DNA of 64,000 nt from Escherichia coli (GTDB taxonomy: Bacteria > Pseudomonadota > Gammaproteobacteria > Enterobacterales > Enterobacteriaceae). The notes below the pieces were generated by a model. That model was not told the origin of the DNA and did not search any database. It saw only the letters and a program-made list of their open reading frames with translations. This document shows, in pieces, positions 59,096-64,000 of the stretch (position 1 is the stretch's first letter; every line of letters starts with the position of its first letter). Both the position numbers and the translations under genes were made by a program. The stretch is from NCBI RefSeq assembly GCF_003790525.1, contig NZ_CP033635.1; one strand, 5' to 3'.

Positions 59096-60265
59096 TCAGG
59101 CGGTTTCTCTTGCTGTCACTACGCCATTTTGCGCAGCCCACAGATTCACATCTTCCTTACGAATGGCGGCGGCCATCATGCCGGGGAATAAATCTGGGGT
59201 ACAGGCAAAGGAGGGAATACCCATGGCGGCGAGTTTTCCTGCCAGTGACCGGTCGTAAAACGGCGCACCTTCATCGCTTAAGGCCAGCAGGGTAACCACC
59301 TGTACGCCGGACTGAATCAACTCACTGGCGCGTTGCAACAGATTGCGTTCCACCCCGCCTTCGTAGAGGTCGGAAATCAGCACCAGAATGGTATTGCGCG
59401 GATCGCGAATCAAAGACTGGCAGTAGCCCACCGCGCGGTTGATGTCGGTGCCGCCACCCAGCTGTACGCCAAACAGCAGCTCTACCGGATCGTCGAGCTT
59501 CTCTGTCATATCAACGACTGCGGTGTCGAAAACCACCAGATGCGTTTTTACCGCCGGGAGCGATGCCATTACTGCGCCAAAAATACTGGAATAGACCACC
59601 GAGGAGGCCATCGACCCACTCTGGTCGATACATAAAATGATCTCCTTTTGCGTGCGTTGAGACTTGCGCCCGTAGCCGATCAGCGTTTCAGGAACAATAC
59701 TTTTATACTCTTCCTGCCAGTGGCGCAGGTTGGCGCGAATGGTGCGCTGCCAGTCAATTTCCGCGTGGCGCGGGCGACGATTACGTACCGCACGATTAAG
59801 AGCGCCGCTTACCGCGCTACGCATTGGCTCTTCAAGCTGTTTCATCAATTGCTCGACAACTTTACGCACCACAAGCCTGGCGGTTTCTTTGGTTTTGGCC
59901 GGAATTACGCCATTCAGCGACATCAGCGTGGAGACCAGATGAACATCAGGCTGGACGTTTGCCAGCATCTCCGGCTCCAGCAACATACTGTGCAAATTAA
60001 GACGTTCAAAGGCGTCTTTTTGCATCACCTGAACCACAGAAGAAGGGAAATACTGGCGAATATCACCCAGCCAGCGAGCGACTTTGGGTGACGATCCACC
60101 CGTGCCGCCGCGTAATCCATGTTTACCCTCTGGCTGATACAGCGCCGCCAGCGCGGCATCAATCGCGGACTCTCTGGCATCCAGCGCCACGTTACAGGCA
60201 TTGTCGGCATCTTCTCCAAGGATCAGACGCCAGCGGCGCAGCCGTTCCATTTCGTTACTCGACAT
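59096..60265 (-). CDS. von Willebrand factor A (vWA) domain protein, 389 aa
   Basis: MIDAS motif DQSGSM (DxSxS) in ...ILCIDQSGSMASS...; AAAGGGA Shine-Dalgarno; start overlaps upstream gene stop by 11 nt. Confidence 0.8.
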   Translation of the reverse strand: MSSNEMERLRRWRLILGEDADNACNVALDARESAIDAALAALYQPEGKHGLRGGTGGSSPKVARWLGDIRQYFPSSVVQVMQKDAFERLNLHSMLLEPEMLANVQPDVHLVSTLMSLNGVIPAKTKETARLVVRKVVEQLMKQLEEPMRSAVSGALNRAVRNRRPRHAEIDWQRTIRANLRHWQEEYKSIVPETLIGYGRKSQRTQKEIILCIDQSGSMASSVVYSSIFGAVMASLPAVKTHLVVFDTAVVDMTEKLDDPVELLFGVQLGGGTDINRAVGYCQSLIRDPRNTILVLISDLYEGGVERNLLQRASELIQSGVQVVTLLALSDEGAPFYDRSLAGKLAAMGIPSFACTPDLFPGMMAAAIRKEDVNLWAAQNGVVTARETA

Positions 60266-62504
60266 GATTTTCCCTTTCGTGTGGTGGCAAAGCCAGAATG
60301 CGGCGCAGTAGCGGCAGCATTAACGCGGCACGCTGTTCATCCCATATACCGCTGGTCTCTTCTTGCTGCGCGACACGCTCGCCCTGCGCGGCGCGTTCGC
60401 CTAACTGGCGGCGTTCCGGGCTGGAAAAACGGCCGAATGTCCGCCGCAGCATCGGCAGGATCCGGGTGAAGTGATTGTCGTTCAGGCCGCTTAGCCAGGC
60501 ATCGATCAACTGCCATAATTCGCTATTGTGCAGTAGCACCATCGCGCTGTCGTTGAGGAAACCTTCCGCCCATGCGGCACTTTCCGCCGGGGGATTGGCT
60601 GGCGATAGCGCCAGGTTCATCAGCGTGCTGATCCGTTCTGTCGTTAACGTTTGCAGATCAAACAACAGGCGCGTCGCCGTTCCGCGAAGCAGCGCGTGTG
60701 CGGTACTGCCCTCTGCCAGCACCATCAACGCCTGCAACCAGCCCGCCAATAGATCTTCGTTATCCAGCAACCGCAGCGCGGCGTGGGCGTCGATAACTTT
60801 TTCTCTCATACTGGCGGCGCTGTCGTCGTTGAGCGCCGAACAGGCTCCGGGTAGGGCGATGGCGGCGCGCGGGGCGAGGCTCATCAGTACCTGCATTACC
60901 ATACCAGAGTCGGTCTGGCGCACGTTGCCGTAGCGGACAATCGCCACCAGTGGTGCCAGGGCTTCCAGCAACTGTTCGATATTGCCCTGAGTGGCAGCCA
61001 GTGATTCCAGTGTATTGGCGATGGGGGCAATCGCGGTCTGTAAATCGGCCAGTAGCACCTGTTGGATAAGCTTTGCCAGTTCCGGCAGCGTGCTGGCGTA
61101 TTGCGCCCTCACAATGGCATAGCGGGAGCTGGCCTGCTCAATGCTGTTACCCCAACGGCTGGCGGTAATGATGTTGATTGCCAGTGCCGGTTCCCAGCGC
61201 AGCGACCAGACTTCGTGGAACGTCCCTTTGCTGTTATTTCCTTGTCCAGCCAGACGGCCCCAGGAAATGTCGAGTAAGGTCAGGCGATGCAGTAAATGGC
61301 TACGCGCCAGATCGCCGGGTTTGCGCAGATCAAGATCCAGCACTTTTTCGCTGGCTTCTGCCTTCAGGCGCAGCGTTTTTTGCTGTTGCGTAATGTCGCG
61401 TTGGAGCGGCACGACGGGCGTATCATCCGGTACGCTTCCCAGCGCGTCGCCGACAATTAACTTCTGGCGAATCATCTGCATTGGCGCGCTTTCGCCCATA
61501 CACACTACGGTTTGCAGCGCTTCGCAAAGTTCGTCAAGCCCCGGCTGCGGGTGATGGCGCATAATCGCCAGCGTCTGCGCCAGCCGCGCCGCTTCGATAA
61601 TGTGGGCGCTGGAACAGTCGAGATCGGCTTCGCGAAACAGCCTTGCCGCGCGTGACAGCCAGCCGATATCGCGGTGAGAAGCGCCCTGATAACGCCACAG
61701 ATGATCGTACCATTCCGGTGACACCACCCCTGCGCCATAACCGCTGGCGCGGCTTAACGCCTCGTAGCTCCAGGGCGTCCAGGCTGCCGCGACCTTGCAC
61801 TTCGGCAAATTTTTCAGCAGTTCGTTATCATTCTTTGCGGGCGGCAGGTTTTCCAGCGCCGGAACGTGCCACGCACCGCAGACTACCGCGATGCGCGAGA
61901 AGCCCTCTTTTTTCGCCTGACGTAGCGTCTTGCGCATATACGCTTCACGCAGTTGATCTCTGGCTGAGTTTCGGGCTTCGGGAGTTGCCTGGCGTAGGGC
62001 AATCATCGCCTCGCGAATCGCCTCGAACAGAGACAAATCATCTTCGCGTTCCTCTACTCTGTGGCTCCACCAGCTTTCCCCATCGGTGTAACCGGCGGCG
62101 CGGCCCAGCCAGTCCAGCGGATCGCCGTCGGGACTGGCTTCAACGGCATCATCGTCATCGCTCTCTTTTTCGTCATCAAGCGCGAACTGATGACTGATGG
62201 GCAAGTCCATAAAGCGCACGGCGATATTTTGCTCAAAACCATAGCGCAGCGCCTGCCATTCCGGGGAGAACGCCGCAAAGGGGTAAAACGCGGCGTGATG
62301 TGAGTCGTCCGGGGCATAAATCAGTAGCGCGACCGGCGGTTGCATCTGTTCATGCTGCATAAAAGGCAGGATGGATTCGCCGTCGGGCGGCCCTTCCACC
62401 AGCAGGCAGTCGGGCTGTAGCGTCTCCAGCGCCTTTCGCAGGCTGCGCGCGCAGCCAGGGCCATGGTGACGGATGCCAAACAAATGAACGGTTTGTTCAG
62501 TCAT
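60255..62504 (-). CDS. large protein of unknown function, 749 aa, operon partner of MoxR-like ATPase and vWA protein
   Basis: ATG with AAGG Shine-Dalgarno 17 nt after the AAA gene stop; acidic low-complexity stretch DDEKESDDDDAVEASPDGD; no nucleotide-binding motif seen. Confidence 0.75.
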   Translation of the reverse strand: MTEQTVHLFGIRHHGPGCARSLRKALETLQPDCLLVEGPPDGESILPFMQHEQMQPPVALLIYAPDDSHHAAFYPFAAFSPEWQALRYGFEQNIAVRFMDLPISHQFALDDEKESDDDDAVEASPDGDPLDWLGRAAGYTDGESWWSHRVEEREDDLSLFEAIREAMIALRQATPEARNSARDQLREAYMRKTLRQAKKEGFSRIAVVCGAWHVPALENLPPAKNDNELLKNLPKCKVAAAWTPWSYEALSRASGYGAGVVSPEWYDHLWRYQGASHRDIGWLSRAARLFREADLDCSSAHIIEAARLAQTLAIMRHHPQPGLDELCEALQTVVCMGESAPMQMIRQKLIVGDALGSVPDDTPVVPLQRDITQQQKTLRLKAEASEKVLDLDLRKPGDLARSHLLHRLTLLDISWGRLAGQGNNSKGTFHEVWSLRWEPALAINIITASRWGNSIEQASSRYAIVRAQYASTLPELAKLIQQVLLADLQTAIAPIANTLESLAATQGNIEQLLEALAPLVAIVRYGNVRQTDSGMVMQVLMSLAPRAAIALPGACSALNDDSAASMREKVIDAHAALRLLDNEDLLAGWLQALMVLAEGSTAHALLRGTATRLLFDLQTLTTERISTLMNLALSPANPPAESAAWAEGFLNDSAMVLLHNSELWQLIDAWLSGLNDNHFTRILPMLRRTFGRFSSPERRQLGERAAQGERVAQQEETSGIWDEQRAALMLPLLRRILALPPHERENHVE

Positions 62505-63616: not shown

Positions 63617-64000
63617 AAAGTAGTTTCTCCGACAAAAAACGAATGAAGTTGAATTCGGTGCGCCAGCGTGGCGCTCAGGGCAGTAAAGGCTGCCTCGCAA
63701 TAAGGCGTTTGTTGTGCGTCATGCGGCCACTTGTCAATGACATCATTGAGGACTTCGGGGGCCAGCAGGCAGGCGAAATCACTCATCACATGGCGCAGGG
63801 CGTAGTCAAAGCGCGCGGAATCATGTTTCACCCAACGGTGCAGCTCCGTGACCATTTGCTGGCTCAGGCGCAGGCTAAAGAGCGACGCATCCAGCGGTAA
63901 CAGGGCGATGTAGCGTTGTAAATGTTCGCCGCCCATTACCGAGAACAGTAACGTCAACACTGGCTCGTGTTCTTCTACGGGCAGGCATTGCAGAAGCTCA
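63613..64000 (-). CDS. hypothetical protein, 5'-truncated by window end (C-terminal 129 codons visible)
   Basis: Open frame runs from the window edge to TGA at 63613..63615, overlapping the AAA gene start. Confidence 0.6.
   Translation of the reverse strand, partial: ELLQCLPVEEHEPVLTLLFSVMGGEHLQRYIALLPLDASLFSLRLSQQMVTELHRWVKHDSARFDYALRHVMSDFACLLAPEVLNDVIDKWPHDAQQTPYCEAAFTALSATLAHRIQLHSFFVGETTL

Follow-up and report, generated by a model that had tools for sequence, protein, structure and literature searches.

A colinear five-gene MoxR–vWA cassette in Escherichia coli related to yehLMP: a candidate motor-gated hydrolase complex

MoxR-type AAA+ ATPases and proteins with a von Willebrand factor A (vWA) domain are known as partners in the chelatase trios BchI/D/H and CobS/T/N and in the maturation pairs NorQ/NorD, CoxD/CoxE, CbbQ/CbbO, and RavA/ViaA. 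Pairs of this type are widespread among bacteria, and a client is known for only a handful of them. YehL is one of the seven recognised MoxR subfamilies (PMC3893208), and almost every E. coli genome has a member of it. In this study, we show that a 64,000-nucleotide stretch of the E. coli contig NZ_CP033635.1 (the window, that is, the whole of the DNA analysed) ends inside a cassette of five genes, which encode a SWIM zinc-finger protein, a DUF5691 protein, a MoxR-type AAA+ ATPase, a DUF5682 protein, and a vWA protein. Moreover, we propose a model at the level of architecture, held with moderate confidence and drawn by analogy with the studied pairs, in which the cassette would specify a hydrolase complex gated by the MoxR/vWA motor, with the target recognised by the SWIM protein and its oligonucleotide/oligosaccharide-binding (OB)-like barrels together with a HEAT-like subunit.

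The cassette lies on the minus strand and is cut by the window, which holds its three 3′ genes and part of the fourth. Genes were called both from our own scan of open reading frames (ORFs) and from the RefSeq annotation of the E. coli SMS-3-5 chromosome, which is 100% identical to the window, and the two sets agreed. The ATPase gene (62522..63616, 364 aa), the DUF5682 gene (60255..62504, 749 aa), and the vWA gene, which is the last of the cassette (59096..60265, 389 aa), are the three complete minus-strand ORFs that had already been recognised in an earlier interpretation made from the letters of the window (hereafter the sequence-only reading), and the SMS-3-5 annotation places them at the same positions. 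That interpretation had described an operon of four genes headed by an unknown upstream gene. The genes and their order hold, but the operon has five members: the upstream ORF exists, yet only about the last 128 codons of it (63613..64000, minus strand) fall in the window, and the annotation and Pfam identify it as a DUF5691 gene of 534 aa that runs about 1.2 kb past the window end. It is preceded by the SWIM zinc-finger gene (440 aa; L001:19215-20537 in the SMS-3-5 annotation, L numbers denoting individual loci), which is situated wholly beyond the window and overlaps the DUF5691 gene by 4 nt. On the SMS-3-5 chromosome the complete cassette occupies NC_010498.1:3587461-3594901. A four-gene clone made from the window would contain neither the SWIM gene nor the greater part of DUF5691. 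The three junctions within the window, all on the minus strand, were read directly from the sequence and are as first described: an ATGA stop/start overlap joins the DUF5691 and ATPase genes (63613..63616), a 17-nt spacer, TCAGCAAGGCAACCACT, with an AAGG Shine–Dalgarno-like element precedes the DUF5682 start (62505..62521), and the DUF5682 stop and the vWA start share an 11-nt overlap, ATGTCGAGTAA (60255..60265).

With regard to the ATPase, the P-loop and MoxR-like character claimed from the letters alone stood up to a profile search (Pfam AAA_5, E 1.6e-38). Its P-loop reads GVPGTAKS, with the Ala variant that is also found in RavA, and in motif alignments built on homologs from 80 genomes the GxPGTAK Walker A motif, the R-h-E-E Walker B motif, the sensor-1 residue N204, and the R219-R220 Arg finger are invariant in 54 of 54 homologs. 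The Walker B motif (residues 158-161) is Arg-h-Glu-Glu in all of them, YehL included, whereas the canonical form is hhhhAsp-Glu and the characterised MoxR–vWA pairs have Asp-Glu. In BLASTP comparisons the ATPase shares 41% identity with K-12 YehL (E 2e-78), and its match to RavA (E 0.05) is confined to the P-loop region; likewise, the vWA protein shares 38% identity with K-12 YehP (E 4e-80) and matches ViaA with an E value of 0.003. Pairwise comparison with YehL and RavA therefore places the ATPase closer to YehL, as a probable member of the YehL subfamily, and the E. coli RavA/ViaA pair is essentially unrelated to the cassette pair. The bpMoxR model of Pfam finds only the P-loop region (E 2.9e-4). 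The nearest solved relatives of the ATPase are the Midasin AAA modules (1e-15) and NorQ (5.5e-6). Midasin/Rea1 and the class I chelatases (BchI/BchD, CobS/CobT) combine AAA_5 or helix-2-insert-clade modules with a metal ion-dependent adhesion site (MIDAS) domain, as the cassette does; it differs from them in that its ATPase has a single module, the MIDAS is carried on a separate polypeptide, and no CobN/BchH-like large subunit is present.

The vWA protein matches the Pfam family VWA_CoxE over residues 149-359 (3.6e-52) and has no C-terminal extension. The intact DxSxS motif previously noted in this last gene belongs to a complete MIDAS site, in which D214, S216, S218, and D299 are conserved in 61 of 61 homologs and T273 in 59 of 61. 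At its N-terminus a W12-R13-x-x-L16-G17 motif is invariant among the homologs aligned. In RavA–ViaA, NorQ–NorD, CoxD–CoxE, and CbbQ–CbbO a MoxR ATPase and a MIDAS-containing vWA partner are encoded side by side, and this is also the case in the cassette, where the vWA gene is found two genes downstream of the ATPase gene in the same operon, a linkage kept in 57 of 64 loci. The characterised pairs, however, do not have the three additional conserved subunits of the cassette, and they have an adjacent client enzyme where the cassette has none.

The largest of these additional subunits, the DUF5682 protein, is covered by its Pfam model from model position 1 to 727 (2.4e-268) and shares 27% identity with K-12 YehM (E 6e-42). 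An AlphaFold2 model computed with 74 diverse homologs (predicted local distance difference test, pLDDT, 91.4; predicted template modelling score, pTM, 0.86) has an N-terminal domain with an alpha/beta fold and a parallel beta-sheet core, followed by a C-terminal half of helical repeats of about 480 residues. According to this model, the N-terminus (approximately residues 1-270) is most likely a TIKI/TraB/ChaN-like alpha/beta domain with two GxxH motifs. G10-x-x-H13, G210-x-x-H213, E37, E82, D100, R171, and R186 are invariant in the 74 DUF5682 sequences, YehM among them, and they lie at beta-strand ends in the model; the likeness to the RRSP/Ere site is one of description and not of superposition. 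The TIKI superfamily counts ChaN and HopBA1 among its members, and its enzymes have a 2His/2Glu site with a conserved Arg nearby (PMC6254334). The invariant GxxH, Glu, and Arg set of DUF5682 matches this description of His, Glu, and Arg residues and so supports a putative TIKI-type site that is intact (PMC6254334). DUF5682 differs from the TIKI/TraB/ChaN/erythromycin esterase (Ere) superfamily, to which Tiki, TraB/PrgY, and RRSP also belong, in that no sequence-profile relationship to it is detectable and in that the domain is fused to the helical region of about 480 residues; nor did we find a MoxR–vWA pairing, such as that of DUF5682, described for any member of the TIKI family.

The two remaining subunits are encoded upstream of the ATPase. 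The SWIM protein is recognised by Pfam (SWIM, 2.4e-6), and its CxCx6CxH motif is invariant in 57 homologs. Its AlphaFold2 model (pLDDT 92.7) suggests a head resembling ZSWIM8 with OB-like barrels at the end. ZSWIM8 is the SWIM-domain substrate receptor of a cullin-RING ligase; the bacterial protein shares 8% sequence identity with it and differs in that it comes without cullin machinery and has the terminal OB-like barrels. The DUF5691 protein matches its own Pfam family (1.2e-122), and its weak match to Pfam HEAT, together with a consensus motif, DKSKxVR, suggests a helical repeat protein of the HEAT type. Single-sequence searches of solved structures gave no meaningful match for the SWIM, DUF5691, DUF5682, or vWA protein. 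Neither signal peptides nor clear membrane segments were found in the five cassette proteins (0/5), which therefore appear to be cytoplasmic. Between two E. coli lineages the DUF5691 gene (L001:17614-19218 and L088:10518-12122) shows 114 differences, with a synonymous divergence (dS) of 0.16 and a non-synonymous divergence (dN) of 0.048, so that it has diverged about five times as much as the other four genes of the cassette next to it. This excess suggests a mosaic or recombined segment, and the dN/dS of 0.29 gives no sign of positive selection.

The resemblance to K-12 yehL-yehM-yehP that had been suggested in the sequence-only reading was borne out by BLASTP (41%, 27%, and 38% identity, in the same order). 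As judged from these alignments, the ATPase, DUF5682, and vWA proteins are distant paralogs of YehL, YehM, and YehP of K-12. The K-12 cluster, yehL-yehM-yehP(-yehQ), encodes the three core proteins of the cassette, arranged in the same order, and its YehM retains the invariant GxxH, Glu, and Arg residues of DUF5682. It also has a SWIM-domain protein, YehQ (614 aa), encoded downstream, but YehQ and the cassette SWIM protein show no significant similarity outside the SWIM region; moreover, K-12 lacks a DUF5691 gene and has WGR and DUF4132 genes (yehF, yehH, yehI) upstream instead. YehQ and YehI were considered as counterparts of the SWIM and DUF5691 proteins and rejected, since neither BLASTP nor hhalign was significant beyond the SWIM motif, and homology between DUF5691 and DUF4132 was rejected as well (probability 18% against a small DUF4132 alignment). 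The yehP gene of K-12 (L002:13968-15104) is reportedly mentioned 36 times in a published scan of E. coli for +1 ribosomal frameshifts (FSscan). Among complete E. coli genomes yehLMP is present in 5,212 of 5,426 (96%), and the cassette in 0.6%. No member of the family has a known function, so the operon is not a conserved core cluster with a characterised housekeeping function. Pfam already lists the genes as DUFs, and a YehL subfamily has been named in the MoxR literature. The cassette is a distinct uncharacterised variant of the MoxR–vWA theme and not a new category; what is new here is the colinear five-gene unit, the predicted TIKI/TraB-type site in its largest subunit, and a candidate sensing subunit.

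The colinear unit is by no means confined to E. coli. In a library of 1.8 billion proteins the DUF5682 sequences, clustered at 50% identity, have 4,447 representatives, and at least 581 loci were confirmed in a scan of species-representative genomes. We examined 80 DUF5682 loci from eight phyla (Pseudomonadota, Cyanobacteriota, Bacteroidota, Chloroflexota, Planctomycetota, Verrucomicrobiota, Deinococcota, and Armatimonadota), 64 of which had enough flanking sequence. All five genes are colinear on one strand in 57 of these 64, with uniform gene lengths and order across phyla, and no other arrangement of the family is as common in the sample; it occurs in at least eight bacterial phyla. When 1,433 flanking ORFs from the 80 loci were clustered, no recurrent sixth gene emerged, with ABC ATPases, hybrid kinases, and aldehyde dehydrogenases, all of them generic paralog families, as the top clusters. 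The only addition seen repeatedly is a YehI-like gene of the DUF4132 family (about 900-990 aa), which at three Bacteroidota loci comes after the vWA gene at a distance of about 20 nt or less (L044:11411-14335, L047:11500-14130, L068:11427-14390). Two DUF4132 genes, yehH and yehI, are also found directly upstream of yehLMPQ in K-12, so the family may have DUF4132 as an optional sixth component. At some loci no ATPase, SWIM, or DUF5691 gene lies within 8 kb of DUF5682, which occurs there either alone (L010, L023, L055, L071) or together with the vWA gene only (L028, L062, L093), and Calothrix and Acaryochloris marina (NC_009925.1) are among the genomes of this kind. At L093 the DUF5682–vWA pair is followed by a 132-aa gene and then by a gene for a 690-aa WD40 beta-propeller protein.

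It is possible to combine these observations in a mechanism. By analogy with all studied MoxR–vWA pairs, the ATPase would form a ring and pair with the vWA protein as its adaptor, the MIDAS site of which would grip a partner protein by an acidic residue. That partner would then be remodelled by hydrolysis of ATP. We infer that the partner is the large DUF5682 protein, since large conserved candidates for it come only from within the cassette. Its TIKI/TraB-type domain, with the His/Glu/Arg set intact in the predicted structure, would most likely be a hydrolase of peptide or ester bonds that acts only once the motor licenses it. The SWIM protein, with its predicted ZSWIM8-like head and OB-like barrels, and the HEAT-like DUF5691 protein may be responsible for selecting or sensing the target, which could be a nucleic acid or a protein bound to one. 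In this scheme the vWA protein would touch both the ATPase and DUF5682, and the SWIM and DUF5691 proteins would dock on the helical half of DUF5682.

Several results weigh against this gated-hydrolase model. Pfam searches with the 74 DUF5682 homologs returned no TraB, ChaN, or Ere match and only five weak matches to AAA_lid_2, a DUF5682 profile search of the PDB sequences found nothing, and Foldseek with the whole DUF5682 model gave no significant match, so that the TIKI assignment is drawn entirely from the predicted structure and the motifs. ChaN is a haem-binding, non-enzymatic representative of the TIKI-type fold, and for this reason the His and Glu residues of DUF5682 could bind a metal or a cofactor and not catalyse. 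The OB-fold likeness of the SWIM model is modest, and OB folds bind proteins too. The choice of substrate for the MoxR/vWA motor is purely inferred, and literature searches for DUF5682, DUF5691, and yehLMPQ found no functional study. Lastly, since DUF5682 stands alone or only with the vWA gene in a few genomes, the five proteins need not form an obligate complex.

The conserved His and Glu residues also enter into a different explanation, according to which the cassette would be a chaperone for maturation or cofactor insertion, either with the ChaN-like domain of DUF5682 delivering a metal or a tetrapyrrole to a client or with DUF5682 itself as the client. We consider this unlikely. Every MoxR–vWA pair that has been studied experimentally is a maturation factor (PMC3893208), but the known maturation pairs adjoin the operons of their clients, and no conserved client gene lies beside the cassette at any of the 80 loci. 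Membership of the cassette vWA protein in the CoxE Pfam family and the position of NorQ as the nearest solved bacterial relative of the ATPase point toward maturation, whereas the three extra conserved proteins, which include a SWIM/OB protein without counterpart in known maturation systems, point away from it. The invariant His, Glu, and Asp residues of DUF5682 could be metal ligands, and a few members of the family weakly match AAA_lid_2, the lid domain of chelatases and MoxR proteins; against this, no homology to CobN or BchH was found for the DUF5682, DUF5691, or SWIM protein in Pfam and PDB-sequence searches. The near-core status of the yehLMP paralog and genomic contexts that are not defence-like fit a maturation role as well, but the patchy, horizontally transferred distribution of the cassette tracks no obvious metalloenzyme.

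Within E. coli the cassette was found in 33 of 5,426 complete genomes, always on the chromosome, in single copy, and between gltD and nanQ, where K-12 carries gltF-yhcA-yhcD-yhcE-yhcF-yhcG; the locus is thus strain-variable, as had been supposed from the window. Its neighbour on one side is gltD; on the other, a remnant of yhcG and two small genes of low GC content separate it from nanQ. The closest relatives of its DUF5682 protein are in Klebsiella huaxiensis (76% identity) and then in Bilophila and other gut Desulfovibrionaceae (about 58%), and K. huaxiensis has the whole cassette at the same gltD/nanQ junction. Furthermore, the yhcG fragment beside the cassette is only about 88% identical to the yhcG of some 4,200 other E. 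coli genomes. The cassette entered a minority lineage of E. coli by horizontal transfer, replacing gltF-yhcADEF-yhcG. The K. huaxiensis locus, the divergent yhcG fragment, and the small genes that occur only with the cassette are consistent with import of the segment from another enterobacterium, and it presumably arrived whole, by recombination in the conserved flanks. The sequence-only reading had also held that third codon positions in the cassette are clearly more G/C-biased than in the adjacent nan genes, but the difference proved weak: the G+C content at third positions is 0.59-0.67 in the cassette and 0.48-0.63 in the nan genes, and the neighbouring core genes gltB and gltD have 0.65. 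An argument for foreign origin from composition was dropped, since the cassette equals gltB and gltD in this respect.

The imported genes have been maintained. The two E. coli cassette lineages differ by about 1.7%, all five ORFs are intact in both, and the dN/dS between them is 0.04 for the vWA gene, 0.27 for DUF5682, 0 for the ATPase, which has zero non-synonymous changes, 0.29 for DUF5691, and 0.28 for the SWIM gene; the cassette genes are therefore under purifying selection. These results bear on the explanation that the segment is decaying or functionless acquired DNA whose ORFs persist by chance, which was already disfavoured and which we hold to be very improbable. The rarity of the cassette in E. 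coli would fit it, as would a scan of the operon strand that found no clear sigma-70 promoter and no convincing terminator. The K-12 genes yehL and yehM are, in addition, said to be listed in a study of transcriptional silencing by Hha/YdgT and H-NS/StpA, which was counted on the same side. However, ORFs intact in two lineages with dN/dS of 0-0.29 and an ATPase without non-synonymous change, translational-coupling junctions that are preserved, and catalytic motifs that are all intact argue against loss of function.

Horizontal spread of a strain-variable, self-contained unit in unrelated genomic contexts is also what would be expected of a defence system, and this was the proposal of the sequence-only reading. 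In such a role against phages or plasmids, the SWIM-OB protein would sense nucleic acid or protein of the invader and the MoxR/vWA motor would license the DUF5682 hydrolase to cut a target in the host or in the invader, so that the infection would be aborted or interfered with directly. A subunit that may bind nucleic acids and a predicted hydrolase as a plausible effector would suit it, and there is precedent in predicted MoxR–vWA conflict systems (PMC7159879). Four ternary conflict systems were described by Kaur et al. (2020), each defined by VMAP, iSTAND, FtsH, or a vWA-fused beta-propeller and accompanied by highly variable effector domains (PMC7159879). Like the cassette, they have a MoxR and vWA core with further conserved proteins, and in both an effector is predicted to be gated by ATP-dependent remodelling. 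However, the earlier suggestion that the operon is itself such a system did not hold: Pfam searches with all five proteins found none of VMAP, iSTAND, FtsH, or beta-propeller, the variable effector domains carried by the vWA or third proteins are absent, and the cassette, by contrast with the ternary systems, is not restricted to multicellular bacteria. The account of Kaur et al. (2020) makes no mention of SWIM, YehL, or TraB/TIKI components (PMC7159879).

The wider evidence leans against defence in the same way. A scan of the four cassette proteins encoded wholly or partly in the window with PADLOC-DB 2.0, candidate systems included, gave as its sole match IetA, over the P-loop only (E ~1e-3), and an NCBIfam scan of the cassette proteins yielded no informative name. 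From phylum to phylum the architecture and the lengths of the proteins hardly vary, and the E. coli paralog yehLMP is near-core, in 96% of genomes. The copy on a plasmid of Methylosinus OB3b lies among toxin–antitoxin genes, insertion sequence (IS) elements, and a recombinase, whereas that on a chromid of Rhizobium etli lies among sugar-transport genes; the family was found on 44 of 72,556 plasmids, the majority of them megaplasmids and chromids, and in a single phage record out of 50,697. PtuB-like and AriA-like proteins are encoded beside the cassette at one Ktedonobacter locus, and a DarG-like macro-domain protein at one Muribaculaceae locus, but plausibly defence-like nearest neighbours occur at only about 2 of 10 loci (40 nearest-neighbour ORFs, a small sample with no formal background rate), and the remaining neighbour matches at the sampled loci are generic domains. 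Flank synteny at the level of the genus in Massilia, one identical DUF5682 sequence on very many contigs of Bilophila wadsworthia, and genomes with DUF5682 but no other component nearby, which is unusual for defence systems, argue in the same direction. The defence module proposed from the window is consequently not supported by the computational tests run, with no PADLOC family, a near-core paralog, few defence-like neighbours at the sampled loci, and rarity on plasmids and in phages, and we regard it as doubtful. A regulated hydrolytic role, in stress or quality control, is rated the most likely, somewhat ahead of dedicated anti-phage defence.

A bolder proposal would unite the cassette and yehLMPQ as an unrecognised and widespread ATP-gated immune or stress machine, in which the SWIM/OB protein senses foreign or aberrant nucleic acid and the MoxR–vWA motor unleashes a TIKI-type protease. 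We think it improbable, but if true it would define a new defence or abortive-infection effector family with structural echoes of eukaryotic ZSWIM8 and Midasin. If the cassette were a defence system it would hold a new class of effector, and a role in maturation would mean that a new client awaits discovery. As for the gated-hydrolase model, it gives the orphan yeh operon and its relatives a concrete mechanism that is testable by mutation.

The remaining features of the window lie between the cassette and nanQ. A RefSeq pseudogene fragment (58968..59090, minus strand) is the remnant of yhcG, which encodes a DUF1016/PDDEXK nuclease; it adjoins the vWA gene and marks the edge of the island. The stretch from nanQ to the cassette also contains two small hypothetical genes on the plus strand, one of 190 aa with a TTG start (58187..58759) and one of 48 aa (58728..58874), followed by a terminator-like hairpin (58891-58904). 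Their segment (58187-58874) has a GC content of 0.40 and no NCBIfam or PADLOC match, and at full length it was found in just 28 complete E. coli genomes, each of which carries the cassette. Elsewhere on the SMS-3-5 chromosome, beyond the window (L090, NC_010498.1:2272001-2302000), we observed a large island with a type I restriction–modification subunit, many IS elements, and an integrase, together with glycosyltransferase and O-antigen-export genes, a frameshifted "TOTE conflict system" primase, and an inovirus Gp2-like gene.

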